This document shows, piece after piece, positions 9,432 through 45,400 of a DNA stretch of 64,000 nt. Origin of the DNA: a virus (taxonomy: Duplodnaviria; Caudoviricetes); IMG/VR virus record IMGVR_UViG_3300042567_001420. The stretch is one strand, 5' to 3'. A program made the position numbers and the translations under genes. Numbering within the stretch: position 1 is the stretch's first letter; every line of letters starts with the position of its first letter. A model generated the notes under the pieces. The model was not told where the DNA came from, did no database searches, and worked only from the letters and a program-made list of their open reading frames with translations.

Positions 9432-9863
9432 TTATTCATCTGTAGGTTGTTTTTTCTTACCAATATTATACTTTGTTTGTAAAGACCATTCGCTTTTATC
9501 TTTAAAAGCAATTACTTTGATTTGCGACAATGGTGCTAAATCTGTAAATTTATCAGGATCAATAATTTTTACTAGGCCCCAATCTATTAGCAATTTGGCA
9601 ATTGTATTACGTCTTTGTAAATCGTTCTCTGTTAAATCTGCAGTCTTACCATCAAGAGCAAAAAGCTCTTTAAAATGCACAATGAAATATCTACCTTGCT
9701 TATGTAAAATATGGCAGGATTGATACAGTACTTTATCTTTGCGTGATGCTACACCTATGCGTGTGAGAGTTTCTCTGACTTTCAAAAAATCGTCAGGTTG
9801 TGCCATGGTTACTTCCAGCGGGTTGTATCCAGGATAATCAATGTGAAAAATATCTTCAGCCAT
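9432..9863 (-). CDS. regA: Translational repressor RegA
   Basis: VRETLTRIGVASRK...LYQSCHILHKQGRYFIVHFKELFALDG. Confidence 0.96.
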   Translation of the reverse strand: MAEDIFHIDYPGYNPLEVTMAQPDDFLKVRETLTRIGVASRKDKVLYQSCHILHKQGRYFIVHFKELFALDGKTADLTENDLQRRNTIAKLLIDWGLVKIIDPDKFTDLAPLSQIKVIAFKDKSEWSLQTKYNIGKKKQPTDE

Positions 9864-10296
9864 TACGACCACCTTTTATTAGTTTTGTTCTTAAATAATC
9901 TAATTTTGAGTCGTCGAGAAGAGGGAGTACTTGGCGGGCCTTTTCTGTGCTATATCCATAGTATTCTTTTATTACTTCGATCGATTCAATTTTCTCCGCT
10001 TTGATCCATTTGTTGAATCTTTTACGGGGCCTAATAGTATTTATAAGAAACGAAAACTGCATCTTTTTCTCAAGATGTGGTCGCGAATTCATCTCATTCG
10101 CAGGGATTACTGTGTCATGTCCGTAAGATAGTCCTTTATTAATAATAAATGCGTTATACTGTTTCTCCGACCAATCGTCTACGATTAAATTATCTTTGCT
10201 ATAATGAATAGCATTAATAAAGTCAAAGGGGGAAATTGCAGGAGCCTTATATGGAACTTCTGCTGGTTTTTCCACAGGGGTTCCAAACAAACTCAT
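9856..10296 (-). CDS. 62: Clamp loader small subunit gp62
   Basis: PFDFINAI, YNAFIINKGLS, IKEYYGYSTEKA; synteny with gp44 and regA. Confidence 0.9.
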   Translation of the reverse strand: MSLFGTPVEKPAEVPYKAPAISPFDFINAIHYSKDNLIVDDWSEKQYNAFIINKGLSYGHDTVIPANEMNSRPHLEKKMQFSFLINTIRPRKRFNKWIKAEKIESIEVIKEYYGYSTEKARQVLPLLDDSKLDYLRTKLIKGGRNG

Positions 10297-10580
10297 GATA
10301 GCATCCTTATCAATCCTACCGAATCTATTGTTACCAATAACAGGTAGTTAGCCAGCATGCCAAAAGATTTGCGAGTCCAAGCAGCCCAAGCATACATACC
10401 ACAGCCGACGATCCATATAGGGTAAAGAGAAAGTAAGGGCGGATTGGGAACTGTGACAGCCATGGTAATTGAACACCCAATACTAATAGCCCAAGCAAGC
10501 AACTCAACGCAAAAACGAAAGCGATTAGTAATGTAGTCATCTTTGATCCAATCAAATGTAGGTTTTAATAAGTCATTCAT
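10293..10580 (-). CDS. Small 3-TM membrane protein inserted between gp44 and gp62
   Basis: Three hydrophobic segments; start and stop overlap both neighbours. Confidence 0.7.
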   Translation of the reverse strand: MNDLLKPTFDWIKDDYITNRFRFCVELLAWAISIGCSITMAVTVPNPPLLSLYPIWIVGCGMYAWAAWTRKSFGMLANYLLLVTIDSVGLIRMLS

Positions 10581-11518
10581 TTAAATTCAACCGATGCCAT
10601 AATCTCTGTTAAACACGCAACAAGATTAATTTCTTGGTCTGCACAAAATGCCGCTTTATACTGATAGTCTGCAAGCAACAAAACAAGTTGTGGAACTTGA
10701 ACAACGGAATCTAATAGGGTATCGTATATTTTTCTAAAAAGAGTTTGCGGATCGTTATCTAGATTGTTAACAACCCAGGTACGCATCTTTTTCCAATCTT
10801 TGTCTTTGAGAGCAGAGATAAGGTCTTGCATATTAACCTCACCCATATTAACAAGAATGCCCTCATCAATTTTACCCGAAGATGCATAACGCTGTAACTC
10901 ATTAAGTACACGACGGTAATCGGGAAAATGTTTCTCAAGAACTTTTGCTACAACTTTAGGGTCGGCTTCGACCTTTTCGTTTGCCAAGATTTCATTAACA
11001 CGTTTAAAGAAACGAGCAGCAATCTTAGGACGCTCTTCTTTACCAATTTTAAATTCGATTACCGCACATCGAGAATGAAGCGGAGGAATAATACGATTTT
11101 TAAAATTACAAGTAAAAATAAATCTGCAATTTGCTGAGAATTCTTCAATGAATGCTCGCAATGCAGGTTGTGTAGAATTAGGGTTTAGATAATCAGCCTC
11201 GTCTAGAATAACAACTTTAGTCTTGCCACTAAAGGATACTGTAGATGCGAACTGTTTGATTTTAGTTCTAAGAACATCAATACCAGATTCTTCTGAACCG
11301 TTAATGATGATATAGTCTGTACCTAGTTCTTCACACAATGCTCGGGCAATAGTAGTCTTGCCCACACCGGCCGAACCACACAATAGCATGTTTTGTATTT
11401 CATCTTTTTCAACCATGTCCTGAAAGACCTTCTTTTGGTCTACAGGTAAAATACATTCATCTAGTTTACGAGGGCGATACTTTTCAACCCACAAAAATTG
11501 ATCTTCACGAAATTCCAT
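10577..11518 (-). CDS. 44: Clamp loader large subunit gp44
   Basis: LWVEKYRP, GSAGVGKT, DEAD, SRC, FPDYRR. Confidence 0.97.
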   Translation of the reverse strand: MEFREDQFLWVEKYRPRKLDECILPVDQKKVFQDMVEKDEIQNMLLCGSAGVGKTTIARALCEELGTDYIIINGSEESGIDVLRTKIKQFASTVSFSGKTKVVILDEADYLNPNSTQPALRAFIEEFSANCRFIFTCNFKNRIIPPLHSRCAVIEFKIGKEERPKIAARFFKRVNEILANEKVEADPKVVAKVLEKHFPDYRRVLNELQRYASSGKIDEGILVNMGEVNMQDLISALKDKDWKKMRTWVVNNLDNDPQTLFRKIYDTLLDSVVQVPQLVLLLADYQYKAAFCADQEINLVACLTEIMASVEFK

Positions 11519-12219: not shown

Positions 12220-12876
12220 TTATATTACCGAATCGGGTTCCATTGCAATAAAATATTCTAATGGCTTTGTAGCGTTTTTAAAGTGGAACAATTTCTTTTT
12301 AGCAACTGTTACTGCATAAGCATCGGGAATGATCTTAAAGTTTTCAACTGCCATATGACATTCAAATGTTGCATCTGATGCTCCGATTGTCTTTTTATAA
12401 GTGTTTGCAGTATCATTTTTCTTATCACCAATGGTCAATGTAACTTGTCCATTTTTGCTAATAACAGAAATTGTAGGTGCTGCTGTAATTGCGGCTGCCT
12501 TCATAATCATGTTAACATCTTCAGATGATAGATTGAATTTAAAGTGTTCGTCAATCTCAATGTTCTTATCGGGTGCTGCTACAATAACGCTTGCGTTAGA
12601 ATAGAAGTATTCAAATTTACCATTGTCTTTAGAGATAGTCAAAGACTTTTCGCCAAAATCAACTTGCTGATTCTCCATCAATGTTAACAATGCCAACAAT
12701 GAATTCAAATCATAAACAGGAACTTCTACTGGGAAGTCTTCGTTAACTGTTACACGCGCAAATATATTCTTTGCTGTGCTGATTGTAGATAACGTCTGAC
12801 CTTTACGGATCAAGATGTTACTATTAATTGCGGCGAAGTTCTTTAAGAACTGGATTGTTTCATTACTAAATTGCAT
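12220..12876 (-). CDS. 45: Sliding clamp gp45
   Basis: LKNFAAINSNIL, YDLNSLL, YFIAME. Confidence 0.95.
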   Translation of the reverse strand: MQFSNETIQFLKNFAAINSNILIRKGQTLSTISTAKNIFARVTVNEDFPVEVPVYDLNSLLALLTLMENQQVDFGEKSLTISKDNGKFEYFYSNASVIVAAPDKNIEIDEHFKFNLSSEDVNMIMKAAAITAAPTISVISKNGQVTLTIGDKKNDTANTYKKTIGASDATFECHMAVENFKIIPDAYAVTVAKKKLFHFKNATKPLEYFIAMEPDSVI

Positions 12877-24429: not shown

Positions 24430-25340
24430 GCAAATGCCTGATTCAATGCAGACATAATGTTTTCGTGATCTTTAGCAGTCAATGAATTGCTAAAGATTGG
24501 GATTGCATGATACGTACATTTGATATTTAAATCTTTTGACATTGTCTCATGTACATCTTCATAATCTGGATGCTTAGTATTAAATGATACAAATGTTTTT
24601 GTGTCATCCATATAATTATCATAAGTCTCGCAGAATACATACGGGCCAGAGTTCTTACCAACAATAACATTGCAGTATGTACTTAGATAAGAAATCTCCT
24701 GTAGATCTCCATCGGTAACAGGACCTATAATATCGCCGGTGAATAAAATATTTGTAGCACCCTCAGTATCAAATTTATTAGTGCAGATAAAATGTGTATT
24801 GGGATACATTTCTGCAAAGGGCAAAATGTGTTCCTTCATATCAGAAGAGAATGACTGATTAGATTGAGGTACATTATTGCAGACTAATACTTTTCGAACA
24901 CCAATTGTAGAATTAACATATTGATCTACGCCTGCAATACTTAAAGCATTGTAGCTGATACGAGGCAAATAATCTTCTTTATCTTTATGTAATTTAACAG
25001 AAGTACCGAATGTCTCATTAATTGTATCTACAATGTCGCCCCATTCTTCGTAGATAGTATTCATATTAATACCACCATACTTACAGAACACATCCCAGTT
25101 ACATCCAACCCACGTATTAACAAACAAAGTATCTTCATCCTGATAGAATGGAGTCTTGTTGTCTAAATCATCAGGCGACCCTATTAAAGGAATGCCCAAT
25201 TCTGCAGTTAACTTTTCTGCATTTTTATGCAGATATTCGAATGTAAATTCTGGTAGTTGTGATTGAATGTGACGAATAAATTCTTTATGCGTATGTAGAT
25301 CACCTTTGTGATAATGATTAAAGAAAACAATTTTAGACAT
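24426..25340 (-). CDS. Hypothetical glycan-related protein (GT-B-like)
   Basis: FFNHYHKGD, VGKNSGP; operon context. Confidence 0.5.
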   Translation of the reverse strand: MSKIVFFNHYHKGDLHTHKEFIRHIQSQLPEFTFEYLHKNAEKLTAELGIPLIGSPDDLDNKTPFYQDEDTLFVNTWVGCNWDVFCKYGGINMNTIYEEWGDIVDTINETFGTSVKLHKDKEDYLPRISYNALSIAGVDQYVNSTIGVRKVLVCNNVPQSNQSFSSDMKEHILPFAEMYPNTHFICTNKFDTEGATNILFTGDIIGPVTDGDLQEISYLSTYCNVIVGKNSGPYVFCETYDNYMDDTKTFVSFNTKHPDYEDVHETMSKDLNIKCTYHAIPIFSNSLTAKDHENIMSALNQAFA

Positions 25341-25692
25341 TATCAATACCTTTATACAATTTAACAGAATCTTCTCTCAAAGATTTTTCATTTTTAATAG
25401 CATCATCAACTAGCAAGTTAATAGCTTGAACATATTTAGGACGCTTAACCTTGAAGCAAATATCAACTTTGCGTTTTAGATCAGCCATCTCTTCATCTGA
25501 TTTTGCAGTTTGAAATGCATCTTCAAGCATCCACATTCTAATATGAATGATAGCAAGTTTCTCAACAATCTCACCAAGATTGTCAGTTGCAATATAATTA
25601 GAATCTGGCATACCAAAGTCTTTAGCATTATCTAAAACATCGTTAACTGTTCTTTTGATAACTTCCTCAATGCTTTCACCTAAATTGGTCAT
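25333..25692 (-). CDS. DUF4254-like helical protein
   Basis: IHIRMWMLED...LKRKVD resembles DUF4254 as recalled. Confidence 0.5.
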   Translation of the reverse strand: MTNLGESIEEVIKRTVNDVLDNAKDFGMPDSNYIATDNLGEIVEKLAIIHIRMWMLEDAFQTAKSDEEMADLKRKVDICFKVKRPKYVQAINLLVDDAIKNEKSLREDSVKLYKGIDNV

Positions 25693-26845
25693 TGATTTCT
25701 CCCACTACTTTATCTAAAAATTTCATGTCTGATTCTGTAACAAAATGATTGTTACCGATATAAACACCTTGTGTCTGAATAATGTCAGCATTGGTTCTTT
25801 TCTTAGTAGTTTCTATTTTATAATCTTTAAGAAAAGGCTGTGACAATAAATTACCCGCAACAACTGGTCTGTATTCAATTGTATGTTTAGTGAATGTATC
25901 CTTCATAGCTAACATGATCTCATTTGATCTGCAGATAAAAGGAAAACAGAAGCTGCTAATTGTTTTGGGGTTTTTAATAGTATAAAACAGATTGGGATAT
26001 TTGTCAATAATTTCCGTAAATAGTTTGTGATTTCTATTTCGAATCTCAACCATTTTATCCAAACGTTTTAATTGCGAGATACCAAGTACAGCACAAATTT
26101 CATGATTTCTAAAATTGTATCCGTCGGTAACAAACAAGAATTGTTTATCCACATCAGGATATTTTTTAGCATACTCATCGAATTTAATTGATTCTCTTGC
26201 CATACCATGGCTTCGTTTAATTTTCATCAAATCATAAAGCTTAGTATTGTTTGTGGAAATCATTCCACCTTCTACTGTAGACATATGATGTCCAAAATAG
26301 AAACTGAATGTGGCGCCTAAACTATTTGAACCACATTTTTCGCCGTATGGTGTTTTGCAACCATGTGATTCGCAGATATCATCTAATATAATTGCTCTAG
26401 GGAAAATGCGTTTAATACCTTCATTGTTTGCGGAAAACCCTAACAAATGAGTAATGAATACCATTTTAATATCATGCTTCAATGCAATCAATCTAGCTTC
26501 TTCGAGATCAAAACTAAAATTATCTAGATTAACATCACAAAATACTGGTTCAAGACCAAGCTGCATAATAGGTGAAACATTCGTCATCCATGTGCAAGCA
26601 GGAACTAATACTTTGTCACCCGCTTTTAATTTGTATAACTCTTTAACTGCCGCTACCAATAAGAAGTTTGCAGTACTTCCGCTAGAAACATATAAAGAAT
26701 GTTTTGCGCCAAGCCATTCACTCCATTCGTTTTCGAATTGTTTTACCTTTTCACCGAATGTGAATTTCTTAGCTGTCAGCGCAAAATGCGCCATCTTCAA
26801 TCTGTCCATAAAGGTGATTGTCTCACCCATCAACGGCCACTTCAT
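25676..26845 (-). CDS. colD: GDP-4-keto-6-deoxymannose 3-dehydratase (ColD-like, DegT/DnrJ fold)
   Basis: TFSFYFGHHMSTVEGG (His in place of Lys), DDICESHG, GYNFR, EYRPVVAGN; adjacent to gmd and fcl. Confidence 0.75.
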   Translation of the reverse strand: MKWPLMGETITFMDRLKMAHFALTAKKFTFGEKVKQFENEWSEWLGAKHSLYVSSGSTANFLLVAAVKELYKLKAGDKVLVPACTWMTNVSPIMQLGLEPVFCDVNLDNFSFDLEEARLIALKHDIKMVFITHLLGFSANNEGIKRIFPRAIILDDICESHGCKTPYGEKCGSNSLGATFSFYFGHHMSTVEGGMISTNNTKLYDLMKIKRSHGMARESIKFDEYAKKYPDVDKQFLFVTDGYNFRNHEICAVLGISQLKRLDKMVEIRNRNHKLFTEIIDKYPNLFYTIKNPKTISSFCFPFICRSNEIMLAMKDTFTKHTIEYRPVVAGNLLSQPFLKDYKIETTKKRTNADIIQTQGVYIGNNHFVTESDMKFLDKVVGEINDQFR

Positions 26846-27777
26846 AGTATACCTTTTTCTGTTTTATACCAATCAATCGTACGCTTGAGTCCTTCCTCAA
26901 ACGATACCTTTGGTTTCCATCCCATGGAAAACAATCTTGAGTTTTCCATTTTGCGTCTAGGTGTACCATTAGGTAGAGTTGTATCCCACTTAATTTCACC
27001 CTTGAAACCAACAGCATCTTTAATTAATTCTGAAAGTTCTTTAATTGGAATTTCAACATCGCTACCTACATTAATAAATTCAGCTTTGTCGTAATTATTC
27101 ATCAAGAACAAACAAGCATCTGCTAAATCATCTACATATAAAAATTCTCGTGTAGGTGATCCATCTCCCCAGCACATAATACTATCTTCATTGTTCTTCA
27201 TTGCGTTAAAGAACTTAGTAATGATACCTGGGATAACGTGACCTTGCTCAGGAATAAAATTGTCATGAGGCCCATACAAATTTGCAGGCATCAAACTAAT
27301 AGCGTTGAAACCATATTGACGTCTGTAATATTCGCACATACGCATACCTGTAATTTTAGCTAATGCGTAACCTTCATTAGAAGGTTCTAGTGGCGCTGTT
27401 AACAGGTATTCTTCTTTAATAGGTTGAGGGGTGACCTTAGGATAAATGCAGGCCGAACCCAAGAACAATAATTTACTACAATTGTTTCTATATGCTGCAT
27501 CAATTACGTTAGTCTGAATAGCAAGGTTATCATAAATAAACTCAGCAGGATTAGTTGCGTTATAATTGATACCTCCGACTTTAGCTGCTGCTAAGAAAAC
27601 ATATTCAGGTTTTTCTGTACTAAAGAAATTACGAACTGCTTGTTGATCTCGTAAATCCAATTCACTTTTAGAACGAAGAATTAGATTATCGTAACCCTCA
27701 TTCTGAAGTTTACGCACAATAGCAGATCCTACTAAACCATTATGACCTGCAATAAAAATTTTACTATTTTTTTCCAT
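26842..27777 (-). CDS. fcl: GDP-L-fucose synthase / ColC-like epimerase-reductase
   Basis: GHNGLVG, AAKVGGI, LGSACIYPK, YALAK, NLYGPHDNF, REFLYVDD. Confidence 0.95.
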   Translation of the reverse strand: MEKNSKIFIAGHNGLVGSAIVRKLQNEGYDNLILRSKSELDLRDQQAVRNFFSTEKPEYVFLAAAKVGGINYNATNPAEFIYDNLAIQTNVIDAAYRNNCSKLLFLGSACIYPKVTPQPIKEEYLLTAPLEPSNEGYALAKITGMRMCEYYRRQYGFNAISLMPANLYGPHDNFIPEQGHVIPGIITKFFNAMKNNEDSIMCWGDGSPTREFLYVDDLADACLFLMNNYDKAEFINVGSDVEIPIKELSELIKDAVGFKGEIKWDTTLPNGTPRRKMENSRLFSMGWKPKVSFEEGLKRTIDWYKTEKGIL

Positions 27778-27784
27778 ATTATCC

Positions 27785-28792
27785 TCACTCAAAATTAGTA
27801 CACATATCTTCAACTAAACTATCGAATGTATGCTCAGGCTGCCAACCTAACACACTCTTTGCCTTTGATGGATCGCCCAATAAAGTTTCTACTTCTGCAG
27901 GGCGGAAGTATTTTTCATCTACTCGAATAATTACTTTATTATTGTAATTATTAATACCTACTTCGTTTAGGCCTGCGCCTTCCCAACGAATAGACAAGTG
28001 ATAGTATGGCGCGCACTTATTAACAAAATCTTTTACCGAATATTGTTCACCGGTGGCAATAACAAAATCATCAGGTGTGTCTTGTTGCAACATTAACCAC
28101 ATTGCTTTAACATAATCTTTAGCGTGCCCCCAATCACGTTTTGCATTTAAATTGCCCATAGATAAACATTCTTGCCGACCTGAACTAATTGCTTCAAGTC
28201 CATCTACAATTTTCTTGGTTACAAAATTATGTCCTCGACGAGGAGATTCATGATTAAATAAAATACCAGAACAGGCAAACATATTATAAGATTCACGATA
28301 ATTTTTAACAATCCAAAATCCATATAGTTTAGCTACACCATATGGTGAGCGAGGATAAAATGGGGTTGTTTCTTTTTGTGGGATTTCTTGCACCAATCCA
28401 TATAACTCAGATGTAGATGCCTGATAAATTTTAGTCTTATGTTCTAAATTTAGTAATCTAACTGATTCAAGAATTTTTAAAGTACCTAATGCATCAACTT
28501 GTGCAGTATATTCAGGAGTCTCAAATGAAACTTTAACATGACTTTGTGCAGCCAAATTATAGATTTCATCTGGCTCATACTTTTTAAGTATGTTCATAAG
28601 TGACAAAGAGTCAGTTACGTCGCCATAATGTAGTTTTAAATTTGGGTTATCGTAGATGTGGTCGATGCGACCTGTGTTGATTGACGAACTACGTCTAATA
28701 ATGCCGTGAACCATATAACCCTTTTCGAGTAATAGTTCTGCAAGGTACGATCCGTCTTGGCCTGTAATACCAGTAATTAATGCTGTTTTCAT
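27785..28792 (-). CDS. gmd: GDP-mannose 4,6-dehydratase
   Basis: [48 protein letters not shown]. Confidence 0.97.
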
Positions 28793-28826
28793 TTTCAATT
28801 CCTATAATGAATTTATAATATACATT

Positions 28827-28888: not shown

Positions 28889-30076
28889 TTAAAATGGGAT
28901 GTCCTCATCCTCTGTAACCTTGTTTTCTTGAACTGGGGCAATTGGTTCTTCCATCGGAGGGGAATCAATCTTAGAATACAAATCCATAAACGCATTCTTT
29001 GTGTCATCGTCAAAACGATTAATACACAGATTAATTGCCTTGCTACGATCTTTAAATACTGAAAATGCTTTTACAATATGAACAAGACGTCGAGTAGAAA
29101 TCAATTCGTCAATTGCATCTTCCATATATGTCTTACGAATAATCTCTGCCCATGCAACCAACTTGTCTGCAAATTCTTCATCCACGCAATTGCTTGTTTC
29201 CATATTGTTGATAATGATCTTGCGCTCAATTGATGTTGAAGGATATTCTTGTTCAACTGTAATTGGGAATCGCTCTAAGAAAGCTTCGTCAAGAATTTGT
29301 GCCGCAATATACTTGCCGTCATCTGTACCTCGACCTTTAGTATTTGCTGTAGCAATAACATTAAAGCCTTCGGCCGGATAAATTACTTCACCGTTCTTTT
29401 TATTAAAGTATGACTTGCCTTCAAGGATACCCTGAATACACATCAACTTATTTGAACCACGATCAATTTCGTCAATCAAAAGAACTGCGCCACGCTTCAT
29501 TGCTGTAATAACTGGACCTTCACGGAATGTAACATTGCCGTCAATCAAAGTAGAACCACCTACAAGGTCATCCTCATCGGTTTCAATAGAAACATTGACA
29601 CGAATACATTCACGTTTTAATTTAGCACATACTTGTTCTACCATTGTAGTTTTACCGTTACCAGTAAGACCAGTAATAAACAATGGATAAAATGCTTTAG
29701 ATTTTACAATAGATTCTAGATCTTTATAAAAACCAAACGGCACATATGTTGCGTCTTTATTTGGAATTAGGTTGTCAACCTCTGTTACTAGTTTGCGTTG
29801 ACGCAATTGAACAACTTGAGCTTGCATTGCAGGCATTTCTACAGGAGAAGCTGTTACTGGAGTATGGGGAATGTTATTCATTTTATCTGTTCCAAATGCA
29901 TCAAGATTAATAATACCACGGCCTGCTCGATATGCCTCACCGTTGATCAACCAGTTAGGCATAGTAATGTCTTTTTGCTTGATAAAAGCAATAACATCTT
30001 TTCTAGCAGCGGTTTTACCAAATGCTTGAATCAGATCAGATACAATTTGTTTCTTTTGAATGTCAGTAGATTTCAT
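28889..30076 (-). CDS. MoxR/CobS-like AAA+ ATPase
   Basis: GLTGNGKT, LLIDEID, ATANTKGRG, AFLERF, ISTRRL. Confidence 0.92.
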   Translation of the reverse strand: MKSTDIQKKQIVSDLIQAFGKTAARKDVIAFIKQKDITMPNWLINGEAYRAGRGIINLDAFGTDKMNNIPHTPVTASPVEMPAMQAQVVQLRQRKLVTEVDNLIPNKDATYVPFGFYKDLESIVKSKAFYPLFITGLTGNGKTTMVEQVCAKLKRECIRVNVSIETDEDDLVGGSTLIDGNVTFREGPVITAMKRGAVLLIDEIDRGSNKLMCIQGILEGKSYFNKKNGEVIYPAEGFNVIATANTKGRGTDDGKYIAAQILDEAFLERFPITVEQEYPSTSIERKIIINNMETSNCVDEEFADKLVAWAEIIRKTYMEDAIDELISTRRLVHIVKAFSVFKDRSKAINLCINRFDDDTKNAFMDLYSKIDSPPMEEPIAPVQENKVTEDEDIPF

Positions 30077-36166: not shown

Positions 36167-36649
36167 TTAATTAAATTCGTTGTCTTCTCTATGACCAGAA
36201 CGGCCTGCCATATTAGAATCAGTCTCGCGAACTTCTACTCGGCAGCACCAAACTCTTTTAGCTTCTTCGCTGCCGCAATTTGGCAAAAAGATTGTGTTAA
36301 TATATTCATATAAGAAGTCAGATAAACCTTCACACCCTGTACGCTCTACTTCTGTGATCTTAGCTAGTTTTAATCTACCCAATTCCAATAGATGTTCGCG
36401 CATTGGATCATCTTGTGCAACTAGCAGAGTGTGGTCAAACCATTCTTCTAGCTTGTCTTTAAGTGGTCGTAGCCCACCAAAATCAGTTACCCAATTACGA
36501 GCATCCAATGTATCTGCTTCAAATTCGAAATGAAAACTCATGGCATAACCATGAATCAAATTACAATGTGAATCTGCACGCCATTGCCGATATGCAACCG
36601 GACCTATTTGTCTATATGTTTTTGTTGAGAAGAATTTTTTATTTGCCAT
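36167..36649 (-). CDS. queD: 6-carboxy-5,6,7,8-tetrahydropterin synthase QueD
   Basis: HCNLIHGY, WVTDFGGL, FDHTLLVA, VEVRET. Confidence 0.9.
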   Translation of the reverse strand: MANKKFFSTKTYRQIGPVAYRQWRADSHCNLIHGYAMSFHFEFEADTLDARNWVTDFGGLRPLKDKLEEWFDHTLLVAQDDPMREHLLELGRLKLAKITEVERTGCEGLSDFLYEYINTIFLPNCGSEEAKRVWCCRVEVRETDSNMAGRSGHREDNEFN

Positions 36650-36687
36650 CTCTTGCCTCTTTAAGTAAGTTTGACGACATGCAGAAT

Positions 36688-37710
36688 TTATAAAGCGGGA
36701 TGAATGTTCGGGTAAGACCGCTGGTTTGTTAAAGCCTCATATGTTTGAGAATTATACCATGTGTTTAAAGATGATAAAATATCAGACATATCATATACAG
36801 GTGTCCAATCTGCAAGACGTTTAAACATTGTACTATCAGCAACTAACGATGGAGGATCTCCATCGCGTCGTTTATTAATAAATGTTACAATTTCTTTATT
36901 GGTAATTTTTTCTACAAGCATTTGAATTTGTAGATTAGAATGCCCCTGAAGCATCCCTAAATTATATATGCCTTGAATAGAATTGTCAATAGCTTTTATG
37001 TGTGCAAGTGCAATATCTTGAACATGAATATAATCTCTAATACAAGTTCCGTCGGGCGTATCATAGTCTGCACCATTTAAAGTGAATGATGTATTATGTT
37101 TGACTGCTTCAAATAGTTTGGCAAAGATATGTGTTGCATTTGGTTCTTGCCCATGCTGACCTTTATCGTCAGCTCCGCATGCATTGAAATATCTAAATGC
37201 AGTGAAATTTAAGTTGTGGCATCGATGATACCATTCCAATAAATGTTCAACCATTAATTTAGATTGACCATAAGGAGAAATAGGATCGACCTTATCGTTT
37301 TCCCTCAATGGTGTTTTTGTTGTAGGAATGCCGTAAACAGATGCGCTACTACTAAAAATAATCTTAGTCTTTGGAATATGTTTAGCAACGAAATCTAAAA
37401 GCAAATTTGTTTTAGATACATTGTTGTGAAAGTAATGTCCTGGATTTTTCATACTAGGACCAACAAGGCTAGTGCCTGCACAATGAATAATTGCTACAGG
37501 ATAAACCTTTTTATATAGACTAAACGCATCCATGTCTGTAAAATCACATTGAAGAAACTCATCTTGAAATGCATCAAGATGATCGTTGTGTCTGTTATCA
37601 ATACCGATAACTTCGTAGCCTTGTTTCTTTAATTCGATGCAAGTCTGGCCGCCGATATAACCGGCAGAACCCGTAACAACGACTAATTTAGTACTTGGCT
37701 GCTGGGACAT
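36688..37710 (-). CDS. galE: UDP-glucose 4-epimerase GalE-like
   Basis: GSAGYIG, SSSASVYG, PYGQSK, RYFNACGA, DGTCIRDYIHV, RRDGDPPSLVAD. Confidence 0.9.
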   Translation of the reverse strand: MSQQPSTKLVVVTGSAGYIGGQTCIELKKQGYEVIGIDNRHNDHLDAFQDEFLQCDFTDMDAFSLYKKVYPVAIIHCAGTSLVGPSMKNPGHYFHNNVSKTNLLLDFVAKHIPKTKIIFSSSASVYGIPTTKTPLRENDKVDPISPYGQSKLMVEHLLEWYHRCHNLNFTAFRYFNACGADDKGQHGQEPNATHIFAKLFEAVKHNTSFTLNGADYDTPDGTCIRDYIHVQDIALAHIKAIDNSIQGIYNLGMLQGHSNLQIQMLVEKITNKEIVTFINKRRDGDPPSLVADSTMFKRLADWTPVYDMSDILSSLNTWYNSQTYEALTNQRSYPNIHPAL

Positions 37711-38857
37711 GATCTCTATAATCCTTACCGCTACGATACCATTTAGCATTATCCTCAAACATAATATCCAAACAACGATCAATAGTACCAGATGTCCAGT
37801 CAGACAACTTGCCTAGATTTGCTCGCTCTTGAACCAGCAATGTATTTAATTTAAATACTGCGTCATCTTGTGACCATGGAATATAAAGACATTCGCGATC
37901 ATTAGCAAATGATTCTGGGAAAGATCTATAAGCAGGATACAAACAATTTGTACCTAATGCATCTGCCTCTGATGCAGTGTTGCTTACCCAATCCTGCAAT
38001 GCACAATTAAACAATACTCGAGAATCGCCCAACAATTCATAATACTCATTCTTTTTAAGATTTTCATAGATTTTAAAATTATGAGTCTTTTCCAATGCTC
38101 GCGCGCGAGTCAAATACTTTTCGTTATTACTACGCAAAGGTCCACCCGATAACACAGCAAATTCTACACCCGGGTTAACTGTATGATATCTTTCAATAAG
38201 ATCCATAAAGAAATCAGGTTGTTTCTCCTGATCAAATCTTGCAGCAAATACCACACGTTGTTTACGCTGATTAAATGGAATACGATTTGCTACACGACTA
38301 CGAACTTCATCTTTATCAAATGCAAGTCCGGAGATATTAAAGATTGGCGCTTCCCAACCTGCAATTTTCATATGAGCAACCATTTCTTCGTTAGATGCAA
38401 GTACACCTGTAACAAATTGATCTGTCATTTTCTCATAAAGACCCATCCACTTCTGCATATCCCATACGTGAACAAAATCATCGGGGTCAATAGATTGTGC
38501 AAGACAACGAACAAAAATTCTAGGTTGATATTCGTAGCTTACTTGATCCATAATATAAGGCAGCGCCTCAATACCGGGAGTAAACATATCTTCAAAAAAG
38601 ATTGTGTCTTCAAATGTTATTTCGCCAGCTTTCATCTTCTTAATAAGATTAGCCATTTGTGTCAGCGAATAATAACTACGCCCATGTGCATCAAGCACTT
38701 GACCGGTAACAATTGCTTTAGAGTCATCTAGAATATCACCATGAATTACTTCATAGTCAATACCTCTGCGTTTAAATGCAGCTTCGCTCCATTGTTGCAA
38801 TTGTAAAGTATAGCGACCTTCATAAGGTTCTAAACCCATATAATATAATTTACTCAC
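37688..38857 (-). CDS. GT-B (GT4-like) glycosyltransferase B of the deazaguanine cassette
   Basis: FAARFDQEKQP, D-x7-E (DWVSNTASE), LYPAYRSFPE. Confidence 0.72.
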   Translation of the reverse strand: MSKLYYMGLEPYEGRYTLQLQQWSEAAFKRRGIDYEVIHGDILDDSKAIVTGQVLDAHGRSYYSLTQMANLIKKMKAGEITFEDTIFFEDMFTPGIEALPYIMDQVSYEYQPRIFVRCLAQSIDPDDFVHVWDMQKWMGLYEKMTDQFVTGVLASNEEMVAHMKIAGWEAPIFNISGLAFDKDEVRSRVANRIPFNQRKQRVVFAARFDQEKQPDFFMDLIERYHTVNPGVEFAVLSGGPLRSNNEKYLTRARALEKTHNFKIYENLKKNEYYELLGDSRVLFNCALQDWVSNTASEADALGTNCLYPAYRSFPESFANDRECLYIPWSQDDAVFKLNTLLVQERANLGKLSDWTSGTIDRCLDIMFEDNAKWYRSGKDYRDHVPAAKY

Positions 38858-39302
38858 CTGCTATCCTTTCAAAACTAATTCTGCAACCGTTTTCACCATC
38901 TTCTGATACTTCAATAGTATAATCCCTATCAGGCCATTGTGCCGCACATTTATCATAAAGCTCACATGCCATCATTTCGCATGACTTATAATCTAAATGT
39001 AGTGTGCCATCAGAATACCATCGTTCCATAATGCGTTTTGCCTGAATAAATTCTACATCTCGATCATCATGAAATACTTCCATCTCTACGCGGAAATGAA
39101 AAATATGTCTATGCGGTGTTCCTAAGAATGAAACATCCAGCCAATCGCCTGTTGCTAATTTAGGATCAGTTGCTGCTTGGGGATATTTATGAATACCCTC
39201 TTTACGAAAGGTAACCCAAATAGAACTTTTCTTTTTAATTAATTTACTGTGTATAATTGTATCTGTAAAAAATACTGGCTCGTTTGAAATAATATCGGTC
39301 AT
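38850..39302 (-). CDS. T-fold QueD paralog, DpdL-like (predicted 7-carboxy-7-deazaguanine decarboxylase)
   Basis: LGTPHRHIF matches the LxxxHRHxF signature as recalled; SCEMMA; EVSEDGENG; immediately downstream of dpdA. Confidence 0.6.
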   Translation of the reverse strand: MTDIISNEPVFFTDTIIHSKLIKKKSSIWVTFRKEGIHKYPQAATDPKLATGDWLDVSFLGTPHRHIFHFRVEMEVFHDDRDVEFIQAKRIMERWYSDGTLHLDYKSCEMMACELYDKCAAQWPDRDYTIEVSEDGENGCRISFERIAGE

Positions 39303-40585
39303 GCAAATAAATCCTCAAGTGAAACTGGTGGTTGTGTGTTAACTGGTTCAGACTCCATATACTTTCCTACATTTCTTTCCCAATCTTCAAAATCAGAAAG
39401 ATTCTTAACATCAAACAATGTAGCGTATTCATTCTCACAGCCTTTTTCTCTACAGAACTTTAAGAACAATTCTTTCGATTCTGTTAAAGCATTGACATCG
39501 TGAGTAAAATTATGTACGTTTGTTAAAATAAAAGCAAGACGTGCTCGCATAATATCAACAAATTTTCCGCCTGCTTCTAAATGAACGCCGACCCCTCGGT
39601 TCATTAAGATATGGTATTCTTCAGGAGTATAATTTGTTCCACATACTGCATTAATTTCTGTAGTAACTGTTCTATAAATGTTAGAATACTCTCTGCCCAT
39701 TTTTACAGATGTGCCGCCATATGGGGAACCTGCTGCCTTTTTAGCGAATGAAAAATAAAACAATCCATTATCTAATGACATGGAATGTGTAGTAGAGTCA
39801 TATGAAATATCAATACCTTCATATAGACCAGATTGACTAAAACAAATATAAGGCAGAATGCGACGTAATGCACCTACACCCAATACGTGTAAATGAAATG
39901 GTCTAGTATACGGCATCTGTGTAACATAGAATGCTCGTTTAACGTCTTCTAATTGTCCCATACCCAGAGCAGCCGATCCCATAGCAAGACCACCGATACG
40001 ATGATGCAATGCCGGAGTAATTTCTTCGAGTACTAATTTTGCCCAGCGTGAATATGATTCTTGCGATGAACCCTGCATAATAACAAATGGTCTACATTTG
40101 CTACCCATCTTATCGAATGTTTCAATTTGCGATTTTACATTCCTGCCCGTTTGTCTTGCATAATCATCAAAATTATCCATGTCTGCATATCTACGCTTAG
40201 TATCAATCTTAGATGATACGCCACTTGTAGAAGTTGTCTTAACAGGAATCTCATCAAACGACATACCAATGTCTGCATATGCACCTTGATTCAAATAAAC
40301 TTTTTCTCTAACTTCTGGAGTATTTTTTAAACCGCGAGTAATAATCTGCAAACCTCCAGAGTCAGCATGAATATTATTAATTGAAGCACGAAACTTTTGT
40401 AACTTAGGTCCAAAGTTCTTTTCCGTAAATCCATTATACAATAATGAGAATGTGTGGTTGTTTTGTTTATGACATACTTTAGCAATCATGTCAAGCATCA
40501 TTTCTAATACATCGGGGTCATTACATTGTTCTGCACCCAGCCGCAAATATGCTGGGCCAGAAATTACGTATTCATATGTTCTCAT
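39299..40585 (-). CDS. dpdA: DpdA-family DNA guanine transglycosylase (TGT fold)
   Basis: DSGGLQ, SFDEIP, MQG, GGLAMG, HVLGVG and SYDST mirror TGT motifs; no TGT zinc CxCxxC; folE/queD/queE context. Confidence 0.82.
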   Translation of the reverse strand: MRTYEYVISGPAYLRLGAEQCNDPDVLEMMLDMIAKVCHKQNNHTFSLLYNGFTEKNFGPKLQKFRASINNIHADSGGLQIITRGLKNTPEVREKVYLNQGAYADIGMSFDEIPVKTTSTSGVSSKIDTKRRYADMDNFDDYARQTGRNVKSQIETFDKMGSKCRPFVIMQGSSQESYSRWAKLVLEEITPALHHRIGGLAMGSAALGMGQLEDVKRAFYVTQMPYTRPFHLHVLGVGALRRILPYICFSQSGLYEGIDISYDSTTHSMSLDNGLFYFSFAKKAAGSPYGGTSVKMGREYSNIYRTVTTEINAVCGTNYTPEEYHILMNRGVGVHLEAGGKFVDIMRARLAFILTNVHNFTHDVNALTESKELFLKFCREKGCENEYATLFDVKNLSDFEDWERNVGKYMESEPVNTQPPVSLEDLFA

Positions 40586-41943
40586 GCAAACAGGCTTTCT
40601 AATGAAGAAGTGACTTCTTCTTTTGGTATAAAATTAGGATCTTTAGATAAGTATGTGTCGTTGTCTGTGTAAATTATATTATATTTAGACTTATTTGTCA
40701 ATATACTTTTGACATCATCTATAGCTAATTGTGATCTATTTAGGATTTTAATAAAGTCTGAATATTTGATTTCGGTATAATCATTAATTTTTGCAGAATC
40801 AGATCGTGACAAAGATGTTTGAGTGTAACTAGATAAGAATTTTTTCCATCTATCAGATGTTTGAAAATCCAAATGTTTGATATACTGCAACGCATCATGG
40901 TTGCGTTGTTTTCGATCAGCATTATATTCTACTTTTAATACTTCGGCAACTTCATTTAACGGTAACCGAATATAATATGCAGGATCAAAATTAGTTACCC
41001 ATTCAGATTTGTCAATAACAATACAAGGCATATGACCTAAACATTCAAAAAATGTGAACGGGTAATTTTCTCTTAGTGAAGGGTTAAAGTGAACCTTTGC
41101 AGATTTAATAAAGTCAACTTTTTCTTTACCAACAATACTAGCTTTAATCTCATAATCGGTAATACCAAGTTCTGCAAGACGAGCTTCAAACTTTTTCTTG
41201 CCGTTAGCATTCGTCATAATTTTTGCAGGCAATCCAGTCTCTTTAATTACTTTTAAAAATGCTTCTGGATTTTTACGATCTTCCCACCGACCAATATATA
41301 AGACGCCTTTTCTTTCTGAATAATCACTTGTGAGCAATTCTCTTTCAGACATAGGCATACTTAAATGTTCTACATCAACTCCGCCATTATTTTTAATTTC
41401 AGTTACATTACGTGCAGATTGTGTGCCAATATAACAACTTTCAAGATTCATTAAGTTGTTAAAAAATTCATTACAACTTTCTAAGAATACGCCTTTGAAT
41501 TTTCTAGTATCACGGAACACCATACTCTCTTCATGCGTGTAAAATACTACAGGAATGTAACTATTAAGATCAAAACTCAATACTGCGGGCATAGCCTCTA
41601 AAGAATTACATACTACCATATCATAGATATTAGTATGAAAAGCATTCATAACAGCATCACGGAAATTAATCATCTTTTCAAAGTTAATTGAATCAGTAAA
41701 TGCAAAAGTACCGGTATGATTTTTATATGACAAGGCATTTTTCGGAGCAATTAAATTTGCGCCCAATGATTCAACTAATTTTGCAAACTCATTTGTTGTG
41801 GGTTTGTCCGTAATAATATCAACCTTCCAGTCAATTTTATTTGCCATTTCAACAAATCCCTTTGCAAATTGTCCAATCCCACCATGCGGAACAAGGTGTT
41901 GATCGCTAATGCAAAACGCAACTCTCTTTTTATAAAGACGCAT
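40582..41943 (-). CDS. GT-B (GT4-like) glycosyltransferase A with C-terminal extension
   Basis: HGGIG, YIGRWEDRKNP, E-x7-E (ENYPFTFFE), about 90 extra C-terminal residues ending SLESLFA. Confidence 0.85.
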   Translation of the reverse strand: MRLYKKRVAFCISDQHLVPHGGIGQFAKGFVEMANKIDWKVDIITDKPTTNEFAKLVESLGANLIAPKNALSYKNHTGTFAFTDSINFEKMINFRDAVMNAFHTNIYDMVVCNSLEAMPAVLSFDLNSYIPVVFYTHEESMVFRDTRKFKGVFLESCNEFFNNLMNLESCYIGTQSARNVTEIKNNGGVDVEHLSMPMSERELLTSDYSERKGVLYIGRWEDRKNPEAFLKVIKETGLPAKIMTNANGKKKFEARLAELGITDYEIKASIVGKEKVDFIKSAKVHFNPSLRENYPFTFFECLGHMPCIVIDKSEWVTNFDPAYYIRLPLNEVAEVLKVEYNADRKQRNHDALQYIKHLDFQTSDRWKKFLSSYTQTSLSRSDSAKINDYTEIKYSDFIKILNRSQLAIDDVKSILTNKSKYNIIYTDNDTYLSKDPNFIPKEEVTSSLESLFA

Positions 41944-41944
41944 A

Positions 41945-42454
41945 TTACTCACCAAGAATTTTAATTAAGTGTTTTGTTTGATGCATCGCATCATCTAAGG
42001 CATTATGATACGTACCTTCGCGTTTGTCTTCTGGAATCCAATTGAACATTGCTTTAGCAGTTCGGTAACAACGATCATCCCAGCATTTCCAAGGTGGTTC
42101 TCTGCCTGTAATGAAGTATGCATTACCTAAAATTGTGTTATCAAATACAGCACCGTTTCCCCAAATAGGTAAACTCTTAGGGCCAAACCATAACTCAAAT
42201 TTATCCAATGCTTCTTGCAATGATATATTATTCTTTGTTAATTCTCGCAAGGCTTCTTTATTTTGTTTAGACCACCATGCAACGGTATCTTTAGAAATAT
42301 GCATTCCAGCTTCTTTACAGCTAGCAAGATCAATGGTGCAATAAAATGTATCTACAATTTTACTACCTTCAAATTTTACTGCACCAATTGAACAAATTGC
42401 TGCGTGTGATCTTGTTGACATTGTTTCCAAGTCAACCATTACATTAATTGTCAT
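41945..42454 (-). CDS. DEDDh 3'-5' exonuclease (Rv2179c/DexA-like)
   Basis: VDLET, WGNGAVFD, HNALDDA. Confidence 0.88.
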   Translation of the reverse strand: MTINVMVDLETMSTRSHAAICSIGAVKFEGSKIVDTFYCTIDLASCKEAGMHISKDTVAWWSKQNKEALRELTKNNISLQEALDKFELWFGPKSLPIWGNGAVFDNTILGNAYFITGREPPWKCWDDRCYRTAKAMFNWIPEDKREGTYHNALDDAMHQTKHLIKILGE

Positions 42455-43134
42455 TTACATCCTTGTCGGGCAATCTGATAAAACTCGTTTCTTACTGCTG
42501 GATCATTTTTAAATCCACCACCTAAACGAACTGTTACTGTAGAGCTACCTGTGTCTTCAACACCTCTAGATTTTACGCAATAATGTTGAGCATCAATCAA
42601 GACTGCAACATCTTCAGTATCAAGAATATACTGTAAAGTATGAAACACTTGCTCTGTTAAGCGTTCTTGAATCTGAGGGCGTTTGCTAAAATATTCTACA
42701 ATACGATTGATCTTAGATAGACCAAGAACCCTAGTCTTAGGTACATAAGCAACTGTTGCTAATCCATCGATAACAACAAAATGATGCTCGCAATTAGATT
42801 GCACATTTACATTGCGCTCACATACCATTTCGTTATACTGCATTTTATTATCTACAGTAGTGCATTTTGGAAATGCATCATAATCGAGACCCCAAAAGAT
42901 TTCATTAACATACATTTTAGCAACACGCTTAGGTGTTTCAATTAGACTATCATCTGTAAGATCAAGGCCAAGTGTTTCCATGATCTTGGCAAATAAAGGT
43001 TCGATAACTGCTATCTTATCTTTACGATCTGGAATTAATGATTTTTTTGTTGGGGTTTCAACACCCATTTTAACTAGGTGTTCGTGAACTCGTTGACCCA
43101 ATTCTGGATCGCATTTAGTTTTATTGAAACTCAT
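42451..43134 (-). CDS. folE: GTP cyclohydrolase I
   Basis: ETPKRVAKMY, CEHH, GLSKINR, RPQIQERLT, HYCVKSRG. Confidence 0.97.
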   Translation of the reverse strand: MSFNKTKCDPELGQRVHEHLVKMGVETPTKKSLIPDRKDKIAVIEPLFAKIMETLGLDLTDDSLIETPKRVAKMYVNEIFWGLDYDAFPKCTTVDNKMQYNEMVCERNVNVQSNCEHHFVVIDGLATVAYVPKTRVLGLSKINRIVEYFSKRPQIQERLTEQVFHTLQYILDTEDVAVLIDAQHYCVKSRGVEDTGSSTVTVRLGGGFKNDPAVRNEFYQIARQGCK

Positions 43135-43267
43135 TTGATAACCTTCCTTTGTGATGGTTTATTTTTGACAGTATGTTACCGTTGCGTAACATAAGTATTT
43201 ATTACTTTGATTTTGTTGTTGGATCACACCCGCATACGCCTTACTGACTTCTTACGGGTGACCATAA

Positions 43268-43462
43268 TTATGCCTTAGTTTTCGCTTCTGCTCTAGCTGC
43301 TTTTTCGGCAGTAATTTCATTGCGACGTGCTTTAACTGCTTTAGATAACTCTGCTAATGCTTTGCGTGTACGTGTACCTGCGGCTGCATTGCCTTTGTTA
43401 AATTTCTCATTCTCAGCATTATATGCTGCTAAACTTGTTTCGATGTCGTTATGTGCGCTCAT
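43268..43462 (-). CDS. Small Ala/Lys-rich protein, Hc1 (histone H1-like) N-terminal-like
   Basis: KFNKGNAAAGTRTRKALAEL; AAGGA RBS. Confidence 0.65.
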   Translation of the reverse strand: MSAHNDIETSLAAYNAENEKFNKGNAAAGTRTRKALAELSKAVKARRNEITAEKAARAEAKTKA

Positions 43463-43478
43463 ATTATTTTCCTTTTAG

Positions 43479-44348
43479 TTAAGTGCCCCATGCGTTTTTA
43501 AACAATGGGATTTGTAGTCGGTCGGAATATCTCCAACCTTTTTGCATTGCGTACTCTGCAACGCTGCGATTATTAAGAGAGTACAGCCGCTCAGTCCCAC
43601 CGAGAGGCATAAGATAAACAGGACCTGAGAAACCAGCTTTACGATATGCATTTACTGCCTCTTCTGCTTCTTCTGCATCTTCTTTAGATCCAATTACAAA
43701 TTTAAGATATGTATATCCTACCCATTCATACCCTGCTACAATTTCTGGGCAAATTGCATCTTCCCACTTTTCACCTGATACCGATAGTTTAGGTGAAACT
43801 GAAAATGTTAAAGCATCACAACCTCTTTTGCTTGTGCGACCTTTATTATTTAGTGTCCAATTTAAAAGATATTGTTTAAATTCATTAGACAAAGGTTGTG
43901 TTCCATTTGTCTCAAATGTCAATTCTTTTAATGCTATCATTTTTTCATTACCGAGTAATTCCGGATATTGTTTTTGCCAACCTAATAGAGGCTCACCTCC
44001 AGTAATAACTAGGTGTTCGTCTTGCCATTTTTTATACGGGAGTGTATCGACGATTGCTTCCACAACATCTTTAACATCGAGTACAGGGCTAAGATGCTTA
44101 AAACGAGGGTCCCAACTAGCATAGGAATCACAGCCAGTGTGTACGAGAGGCAAGTCATTATAATTTTTAAAGCTTTCGGCCTTAATCGAGATAACATTTC
44201 GTTCATCGCTTTTTTCGCCTTTTGGCATGCCGAACCCGTCGCAAGTAAAATTGCAACCAAATGTTCTTAAGAAGACAGAGGGCGCACCCATATAGCGGCC
44301 TTCACCCTGAATTGAATAAAATAGTTCTGAAATTTTAAGTTTAGCCAT
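43479..44348 (-). CDS. queE: 7-carboxy-7-deazaguanine synthase QueE (radical SAM)
   Basis: ELFYSIQGEG, FLRTFGCNFTC...GCDS, ITGGEP, FETNGT, SVSPKL, RLQIPL. Confidence 0.93.
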   Translation of the reverse strand: MAKLKISELFYSIQGEGRYMGAPSVFLRTFGCNFTCDGFGMPKGEKSDERNVISIKAESFKNYNDLPLVHTGCDSYASWDPRFKHLSPVLDVKDVVEAIVDTLPYKKWQDEHLVITGGEPLLGWQKQYPELLGNEKMIALKELTFETNGTQPLSNEFKQYLLNWTLNNKGRTSKRGCDALTFSVSPKLSVSGEKWEDAICPEIVAGYEWVGYTYLKFVIGSKEDAEEAEEAVNAYRKAGFSGPVYLMPLGGTERLYSLNNRSVAEYAMQKGWRYSDRLQIPLFKNAWGT

Positions 44349-44373
44349 AATGACTCCGTTCAACAATACTCAT

Positions 44374-44402
44374 ATTATATAGTGTTTAATCATCTAAGTC
44401 AA
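44374..44402 (-). promoter_or_regulatory. sigma70-type promoter heading the DNA-modification cassette
   Basis: TTGACT-N17-TATAAT, overlapping the 3' end of gp55. Confidence 0.8.
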
Positions 44403-45006
44403 GTGGATTACTTGAATCGTCCGAAATTATTTTGTTCTTTTTAGGAGTTGAAATTACCCGTTTTTCAATATCAATAGTATCCATTTGCCGTTTTAAGTAA
44501 TCTAAGAACTGATTACCAAATTCGCCGTTGTCATGTTCTTGAAGAATTAATGAATCAATATCCATATTCTCAATCAATTTATACTTAGTAGCTTGTTGCT
44601 TCTTTTCTTTTTGGATACGTCTAATAAAAGCAAAGTATATAATTTGAGTATAATATGCGAAAGGATTTGATCCTTTAGATGGGTCAAATTTGACAACAGC
44701 AGTTAGACAATTTTCAATTCCATCTGAAATCATATCATCTTTAAATGTATAATTAATGAAATTAGATTTATAAGATAAATGTGTTGCAATTTTAATAAAG
44801 CATTCACCTATGTAGTTAGATACAATAGGTGGTTCTTTTCCTGCGGCCGCCGCATCAACTACACTTTGTCTATATTCAATAAGAGCTTGTAAAAACTTTT
44901 TATTGTCTACATAGTGAGACGAAGTAGGAATTTTTACTTCCTTAACTACTTCAGCTATTTCAGTGGAGAGTTCTTCCACGTCTTTTAGGGGGTTCTTTGT
45001 TTTCAT
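44386..45006 (-). CDS. 55: Late-transcription sigma factor gp55 (start uncertain)
   Basis: HYVDNKKF, YIGECF, FINYTFKDDMISDG, NPFAYYTQI..AFIRRI. Confidence 0.95.
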   Translation of the reverse strand: MKTKNPLKDVEELSTEIAEVVKEVKIPTSSHYVDNKKFLQALIEYRQSVVDAAAAGKEPPIVSNYIGECFIKIATHLSYKSNFINYTFKDDMISDGIENCLTAVVKFDPSKGSNPFAYYTQIIYFAFIRRIQKEKKQQATKYKLIENMDIDSLILQEHDNGEFGNQFLDYLKRQMDTIDIEKRVISTPKKNKIISDDSSNPLDLDD

Positions 45007-45400
45007 TATGCTCTTCTTCAAGTGTGTTTATAAATTTATCTACAATTTCTTGGATTTGTTCTTTTTCCAAATCCTTTTCCTCAACCTCAGAAATTTCAGG
45101 ATCTGCCCTGGAATCTATGAATTTTATATAATTATCTTTTAATGTTTCTTTTGTATCAACAGCAACTATAATATGATCTGTTGATATCTCAAAACTTTCT
45201 GTGTTTCCTAATGCTACCCAGGGGGATAAAATATATGATTCTACAATCATATCGCCCCTTGGCATTCTAATCTGATTTAATACTACAGGATCTGTAATTG
45301 ATATGTTACGCCCTTTAAGGTCTTTACATTCATCGAATGTTTTACATATTATATCTTCACCACTTGTTAATTTTAAAATTTTAACATTCGGATCGTTCAT
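44960..45400 (-). CDS. Conserved hypothetical protein, probable Sm-like fold
   Basis: VKILKLTSGEDIIC; lies between uvsW and gp55. Confidence 0.7.
   Translation of the reverse strand: MNDPNVKILKLTSGEDIICKTFDECKDLKGRNISITDPVVLNQIRMPRGDMIVESYILSPWVALGNTESFEISTDHIIVAVDTKETLKDNYIKFIDSRADPEISEVEEKDLEKEQIQEIVDKFINTLEEEHNENKEPPKRRGRTLH

Follow-up and report, generated by a model that had tools for sequence, protein, structure and literature searches.

The stretch of DNA considered here, 64,000 nucleotides from a virus of the Caudoviricetes (Duplodnaviria; IMG/VR record IMGVR_UViG_3300042567_001420) that we refer to throughout as the window, derives from a freshwater metagenomic T4-like phage with a G+C content of 35.6%, to which no near-identical DNA was found among the INPHARED phages. 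Two neighboring genes of the window, those for a DpdA-type DNA guanine transglycosylase and for a glycosyltransferase (GT), end in nearly the same seven residues, SLEDLFA and SLESLFA, and the DNA polymerase of the same phage ends in a third version, TLEGLFA. We put at roughly 0.8 the probability that the two enzyme tails are, as comparison of their sequences suggests, T4-type C-terminal sliding-clamp interaction motifs of the same kind as the polymerase end; the polymerase, DpdA and the GT would then probably all dock on the sliding clamp. This class of clamp motif is already known, and it is the DNA-modifying carriers, DpdA and the GT, that are new as clients.

A C-terminal peptide common to DpdA, a glycosyltransferase and the DNA polymerase

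The likeness of the two enzyme tails had been pointed out in an initial annotation, and re-reading the ends of the open reading frames (ORFs) bears it out. DpdA closes with ...PPVSLEDLFA, its tail and stop codon lying at 39299..39322 on the minus strand (TCA CTT GAG GAT TTA TTT GCA TGA), while the GT closes with ...TSSLESLFA at 40582..40605, also on the minus strand (TCA TTA GAA AGC CTG TTT GCA TGA); the codons are as first described. Because the two tails match at only 13 of their 21 bases, the likeness resides at the protein level, as the annotation had argued in proposing selection on the peptide itself. Across the 76 likely genes of the window, DpdA and the GT are the sole pair with identical residues at six of the last seven positions, and the sole pair identical at five of seven consists of two Fe-S paralogs. 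By chance, 0.001 six-of-seven pairs would be expected per window, and none of 2000 column shuffles yielded one.

The polymerase was located by walking left from window ORF 1554-2141 to an 83-kb JGI contig of the same phage, with locus L190 being 100% identical to window positions 1-12141 and locus L004 99.98% identical to positions 29299-50585. The gene for the phage's family-B DNA polymerase lies 2.7 kb beyond the left edge of the window, and its product ends ...QATLEGLFA, in codons (ACA TTG GAA GGA TTA TTC GCA) that differ from those of both the DpdA and the GT tails. A check that had been proposed at the outset, namely whether the phage's own polymerase ends like the two enzymes, is thus answered in the affirmative.

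The known precedent is that of T4, in which the C-terminal segments of gp43, gp55 and gp33 are interchangeable clamp-binding motifs, and of RB69, whose clamp has been crystallized with the last 11 residues of the polymerase (PMC2988020). The T4 record, with gp43 ending SLDFLFG and gp55 ending SLDFLYEAND, agrees with this background, on which the initial annotation had also drawn. Both DpdA SLEDLFA and GT SLESLFA have the register S-L-D/E-x-L-F(-small) at the extreme C-terminus, and both follow a variable, flexible linker, as seen in gapped linker columns ahead of almost invariant LExLF or LF columns and in predicted local distance difference test (pLDDT) values of 54-65 at the modeled tails.

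The window also encodes the proposed docking partner. A gp45 sliding clamp (12220..12876, minus strand) is recognized by Pfam gp45-slide_C (E 1e-8) and phrog_223 (E 8e-63), and phmmer matches it at E 1e-16 to the clamps of RB69 (1B77/1B8H) and T4 (1CZD). Also on the minus strand are the large clamp-loader subunit gp44 (10577..11518; Pfam AAA, Gp44_lid and DNA_pol3_delta2) and a gp62-like small subunit (9856..10296), the latter identified through PF16790 Phage_clamp_A on the identical L190 gene at 18303-18743.

As for the carriers themselves, the profiles of DpdA and the GT found no match among PDB sequences, and a fold search was therefore made. The 428-residue product of 39299..40585 (minus strand) is not recognized by Pfam and matches NCBIfam tgt_general at E 6e-7, under the curated cut-off; its match to phrog_10773 is far stronger (E 3e-99). 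An AlphaFold model built with 43 homologs as input has a pLDDT of 90.4, and the top 50 Foldseek matches are all tRNA-guanine transglycosylases (TGT) of bacteria, at E ~2e-9. Given the TGT fold match, a likeness to KVP40 DpdA2 (35% identity across residues 5-290) and FolE, QueD, QueE and DpdL-like neighbors, the ORF is, on sequence and model, a DpdA-type DNA transglycosylase that is predicted to insert a base into DNA. Its tail (residues 421-428) has a pLDDT of 65 and forms a short helix at 423-427 in the model, and a variable Pro-rich linker precedes conserved L, E, L and F columns in the homolog alignment (A2).

The GT (40582..41955, minus strand) is a GT4-like enzyme of 457 residues from a TTG start, or of 453 from the ATG called by JGI. 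Pfam Glycos_transf_1 matches it weakly. Its model (pLDDT 89.6) has the two Rossmann-like domains of the GT-B fold, and Foldseek returns MshA, HepE, WaaG and other GT4 enzymes at E 1e-12 to 1e-10. The two tailed enzymes accordingly have unrelated folds, as had been claimed, although the name "GT-A" that the annotation gave to this glycosyltransferase can be retained solely as a label, the fold being GT-B. Here, too, the tail is a modeled short helix (residues 452-456) of modest pLDDT (54 at 451-457), and the LF columns of the homolog alignment (A3) are invariant after an indel-rich linker.

The polymerase (L190:3228-3233), GT (40582-40587) and DpdA (39299-39304) genes all terminate in GCATGA, the stop codon overlapping the ATG of the next gene, which is dpdA in the case of the GT and the DpdL-like gene in the case of DpdA. 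Because of this overlap the terminal Ala is linked to translational coupling. The overlap is able to constrain the last tail codon only, and in relatives the last tail residue is Glu, Gly, Ser, Lys or Val, so that this position is free to vary.

Conservation of the tails and co-variation with the polymerase

Homologs of both enzymes keep the tails, and in each lineage these follow the tail of the polymerase, which answers a further check set by the initial annotation. Among full-length DpdA homologs, to 38% identity and with marine sequences included, 107 of 110 end in [ST]L[ED]x[LFM]F followed by zero to two residues, and every one of 116 full-length GT homologs, to 52% identity, keeps a hydrophobic-acidic tail. 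Farther out, 67 of 92 distant representatives of the GT family (to ~27% identity) end in [LFMIV][FW] with zero to three residues following, vs 64 of 789 control phage ORFs. Within the window's own clade, the polymerases of 13 genomes end [ST]LEGLFx, the GTs xLE[SDA]LFx and the DpdAs [ST]LE[DE]LFx.

Outside this clade the enzyme tails co-vary with that of the polymerase. In the cultured phage BUCT-ZZ01, which has both tailed enzymes, the polymerase ends TLDDFFS, DpdA SLDSFFD and the GT SLEDFFND. The polymerase and DpdA end, respectively, SLDDLFE and TLDELFE in ACP17, SLESLFG and SLEELFG in X1, and SLEDLFG and SLDDLFG in Mendera. In BUCT-ZZ01, X1 and Mendera the tails are kept without gene overlap, the next gene starting 35-70 nt downstream, and translational coupling was for this reason rejected as the cause of the tail likeness.

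A set of larger relatives (12 records with contigs of 33-303 kb, for which CheckV completeness implies genomes of ~330-390 kb) shows the same parallel shift in another register. Their polymerases end ..D[DE]LF[ST]FG and their GTs ..SLFEFV, ..SLFSFT or ..LFEGL, so that both proteins carry three residues past LF, as opposed to one in the window's clade. Among the long ORFs of the 303-kb record, just three have an LF-x-F type end, namely those of the polymerase, the GT and a protein of 86 residues (G017:C1:35674-35934, plus strand). This small protein, which ends ..SSMFQWG, is possibly a gp33-like clamp-binding co-activator. The ORF that follows the GT in the large relatives and ends ..SLEELLKV was considered as a third tail carrier and rejected, since it is a nucleotide-sugar epimerase rather than a DpdA; the DpdA profile (A2) found no match in five large-relative records.

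A more distant case, from another kind of phage, is a 25-kb contig with DnaB/DnaG-type replication genes (L216, ENA k141_729087) that encodes DnaG, DnaB, QueD, QueE, FolE, two GT paralogs and a QueC-like gene. The GT paralogs stand in tandem (L216:10001-12749) between FolE/QueD/QueE and the QueC-like gene, and they end QQLRLF and RQLKLF, fitting the QxxLF consensus of the bacterial beta clamp, whose binding motif is QL[S/D]LF or QxxLF (PMC12309361). One of the neighbors, of 458 residues, had been taken as a candidate DpdA and was rejected as a GT paralog (P0370). DnaB of this contig ends ..EDEDDF. As the L216 contig also shows, the GT family stays within deazaguanine cassettes. Taken across these lineages, the tail appears to match whichever type of clamp-binding peptide the phage employs, a pattern that would be hard to explain unless the clamp were the partner.

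The tail is also restricted in its distribution. Every ORF of the complete or nearly complete relatives was scanned for a strict C-terminal pattern, [STAGN]L[DE]x[LFM][FLY]. In G037, a genome of 202,665 bp with terminal repeats whose polymerase is 83% identical to that of the window's phage, the pattern is confined, among long ORFs, to four proteins: the polymerase (TLEGLFS), DpdA (SLEDLFA), the GT (TLESLFK) and a gp26-like protein (GLQNFFV). The carriers in BUCT-ZZ01 are the same four, and those in Mendera and ACP17 are the polymerase, DpdA and the gp26-like protein. The narrower [ST]LExLF tail is restricted in these four scans to the polymerase, DpdA and the tailed GT. The Campylobacter phage CP220, in which a DpdA3 achieves complete G replacement, is uninformative in this respect; its polymerase ends TLEEW, an end without a counterpart on any other long ORF.

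The gp26-like proteins that the strict pattern also finds are baseplate-hub proteins (phrog_150) with a conserved GLxxFF end directly after a CxxC element, a trait of that family. They occur in BUCT-ZZ01 (L187:2845-3555), Mendera (L188:2039-2800) and ACP17 (L002:11090-11851), as well as in T4 as gene 26 (L189:7803-8429). Their ends (GLETFFA, GLEDFFG, GLDDFFV and GLQNFFV, with GLKEFFELL in T4 gp26) start GL, not [ST]L. Window ORF 60337-61089, which ends ..FIETFEDF, was examined as a gp26-like candidate and rejected as gp15-like.

Proposed docking on gp45 and the competing explanations

The proposed mechanism starts from the clamp loader gp44/62, which would place gp45 trimers at replication forks and nicks, with as many as three identical sites for docking on each trimer. 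Through their tails, DpdA and the GT would bind there, and they would be held on and slide along fresh phage DNA. DpdA would there swap guanine for a 7-deazaguanine base supplied by FolE/QueD/QueE(/DpdL), and the GT would act on the DNA at the same place. The initial annotation had likewise proposed that both enzymes ride the clamp and modify nascent DNA, and this interpretation draws support from the comparative evidence, namely the polymerase tail, the restricted distribution of the motif, the conservation of the tails and their co-variation.

A complex of three gp45 chains with GT residues 418-457 was predicted with a score of 0.42 (runs of 0.45, 0.41 and 0.42), the best of three controls scoring 0.00; in these runs the contact agreement is at least 54% and the pLDDT of the partner at least 39. 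The score passes, as weak support, the mark used for such predictions, which is attained by 51 of 78 solved complexes as against 2 of 108 mismatched pairs; scores of 0.60 or less are those of just 5 of the 78 solved complexes, along with all 4 mismatches (of 180) that pass. The score may reflect mere likeness to the solved complex of the RB69 clamp with the polymerase peptide.

Several points weigh against clamp docking of the two enzymes. The fold test of gp45 with the GT tail gave a weak score, and it is from the models and sequences that we infer binding of the tail to gp45. As the GLxxFF of the gp26-like proteins indicates, acidic-aromatic ends of this sort are also possible on proteins without a known clamp role. 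KVP40 DpdA2 has no such tail even though the KVP40 polymerase ends TLESFFG, and the tail of the pf16 DpdA is degenerate (TLDLMCA); because of these two cases, DpdA can evidently work without the tail. Nor does every expected clamp client have the motif: the late sigma factor gp55 of the window (44386..45021, minus strand; phrog_234, E 3e-57) ends ...NPLDLDD, and the PLDLDD end of the clade does not resemble that of the polymerase. It may be that the contact of gp55 with the clamp has diverged here or disappeared. In relatives gp55 ends PLDVDD, TLDLDD, PIDLDD or FIDMID, whereas T4 gp55 and gp43 instead share SLDFL.

Two further points concern the GT. If the inserted base is 7-deazaguanine, as the DpdL-like gene suggests (see below), it offers no obvious acceptor group for a sugar. 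The precedent from T4 is contested as well. The initial annotation had taken it as established that T4 alpha-GT interacts with gp45, and an in vitro interaction was reported in 2004. T4 alpha-GT, however, ends ...FDIITK, without a tail, and more recent work finds that neither alpha-GT nor beta-GT co-purifies with gp45, be it in vitro or in vivo (2025 preprint; NAR 2026). Since the alpha-GT/gp45 link is contested, the case for the clamp rests on the polymerase tail and not on this precedent.

Among the explanations other than a phage clamp, the one that survives best is that the common peptide addresses the proteins to another partner. It might act as a degron, be recognized by a chaperone, contact gp32 or RNA polymerase, or serve as a handle for assembly of the polymerase, DpdA and GT with one another without the clamp. 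It can draw on the related GLxxFF end of hub proteins with no known clamp role, and on the fact that binding to gp45 is predicted, at the score given above, rather than observed. We nonetheless regard it as very improbable. The motif is homologous in both position and sequence to the end of T4/RB69 gp43, the partner of which is known structurally and genetically, and the GTs of the DnaB/DnaG-type contig switch to another known clamp motif, a change that, whichever clamp is used there, is hard to reconcile with a degron or a gp32 contact.

We consider it very improbable that the tails dock on the host beta clamp (DnaN), alone or besides gp45. The beta-clamp motif QL[S/D]LF or QxxLF is likewise a short C-terminal L..LF peptide (PMC12309361), distant members of the GT family end in exactly QxxLF, and some large-phage GT tails read ..GLSLFEGL. 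On the other hand, the phage has a clamp and a loader of its own and a polymerase bearing the same tail, the window tails lack the leading Gln and keep the six-residue T4 register S-L-[DE]-x-L-F, and it is with the end of the phage polymerase, rather than with host taxonomy, that their sequences co-vary.

That the likeness is a by-product of constraint on the DNA (a ribosome-binding site or the ATGA overlap) or of chance has next to no probability: although all three genes end GCATGA and the DpdA tail codons hold GAGGA ~9 nt before the ATG, the peptide is kept in >200 homologs with different codons, its conservation at loci without gene overlap (next gene 35-70 nt downstream) effectively refutes this idea, and the chance expectation is the 0.001 pairs per window given above. 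Even combined, the three alternatives hold only a small share of the probability, and docking of the tails on the phage's own clamp remains the reading that we prefer.

A broader proposal built on clamp docking is decidedly more tentative. The GT4-like phage GT family and one clade of DpdA might be obligate clamp clients whose tails are re-tuned to whichever replisome clamp is present, as S-L-E-x-L-F (T4-type), LF-x-F (large relatives) or QxxLF (DnaB/DnaG-type), with the polymerase, DpdA and GT forming a tool-belt on the gp45 trimer that would first insert a 7-deazaguanine base and next glycosylate the DNA during replication, to yield a sugar-bearing deazapurine or other hypermodified base not described before.

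The deazaguanine cassette and comparison with known systems

The tailed enzymes lie in a cassette (36167-44366) that is placed between genes 47 and 55, the position of alpha-gt in T4. Its deazaguanine synthesis genes encode QueD (36167-36649), FolE (42451-43134) and QueE (43479-44366). A paralog of QueD (38850..39302, minus strand; phrog_17812) carries, in its translation, LGTPHRHIF, in keeping with the LxxxHRHxF signature described for DpdL (PMC10516641), and has no clamp-type tail. Because this DpdL-like gene is present and QueC is absent, the inserted base is, on gene content, probably 7-deazaguanine or its carboxy form. A second GT-B glycosyltransferase of the cassette (37688..38857, minus strand) ends ...PAAKY, and its homologs end ..[ES][ST]KY in all relatives examined. 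No clamp-type tail was found on this second GT or on the small-molecule enzymes of the cassette.

Elsewhere in the window, a block of ~16 kb of nucleotide-sugar and GT genes (12947-28798) lies between gp45 and AAA+/peptidase genes, and since no product encoded there has a clamp-type tail, the tailed GT is set apart from this block. A MoxR/CbbQ-like AAA+ ATPase (28889-30076, minus strand) ends ...TEDEDIPF after a Pro/Glu-rich stretch, resembling the C-terminal tip of single-stranded DNA-binding protein (SSB), and would thus be another short terminal docking peptide in the same phage.

What is at stake is how a phage DpdA finds a genome and covers it in full. DpdA-type base exchange has been described as post-replicative, and the question is how phage DpdA does so without the bacterial DpdB ATPase; the polymerase-type tail offers a concrete answer, namely tethering to gp45 on new DNA. 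Phages with DpdA2 modify <0.1% of G, and ACP17 DpdA together with DpdL is inactive in E. coli (PMC10516641). If the enzymes do require the phage clamp, this could explain why that reconstitution gave no product. For the GT, sequence offers no stronger sign than the tail that a widespread enzyme family works on DNA; together with the constant placement of the family in deazaguanine cassettes, the tail hints at DNA as the substrate and points to a new sugar hypermodification tied to the 7-deazaguanine pathway. A full-text search of the literature found no paper linking DpdA to the sliding clamp, and, if true, docking by such tails would be the clearest example among phages of a DNA-modification enzyme whose coupling to a clamp is written in its sequence.

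Comparison with the relevant known systems places the two enzymes as follows. The DpdA2 proteins of the Vibrio phages KVP40, VH7D and nt-1 share with the window's DpdA a homologous TGT-fold core, FolE/Que gene neighbors and a T4-like phage as the host of the gene, whereas KVP40 DpdA2 has another C-terminal region and no clamp-type tail. T4 alpha-GT provides the idea of a DNA sugar-transferase on the clamp, and the cassette here occupies the alpha-gt position between genes 47 and 55; the T4 enzyme is nonetheless different in lacking a polymerase-like tail and in belonging to Pfam PF11440, as opposed to the GT4-like family here.

The bacterial beta-clamp motif is likewise a short terminal peptide that tethers DNA enzymes to a clamp, and distant GT relatives do end in QxxLF, but this motif and the PIP-box of PCNA belong to other clamp families and have other registers, with the window tails lacking the Gln. 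Clients of the PCNA PIP-box include DNMT1, a DNA-modifying enzyme tethered to the replication clamp. The closest likeness is to the T4-type motif of gp43, gp55 and gp33, with which the tails share the extreme C-terminal position, the sequence S-L-[DE]-x-L-F-small, the variable linker and the presence of a gp45 homolog and its loader. They differ from it in that gp55 of the clade here uses a PLDLDD end, and in that the carriers, known here from their sequences, are a DNA base transglycosylase and a glycosyltransferase rather than a polymerase or transcription factors.

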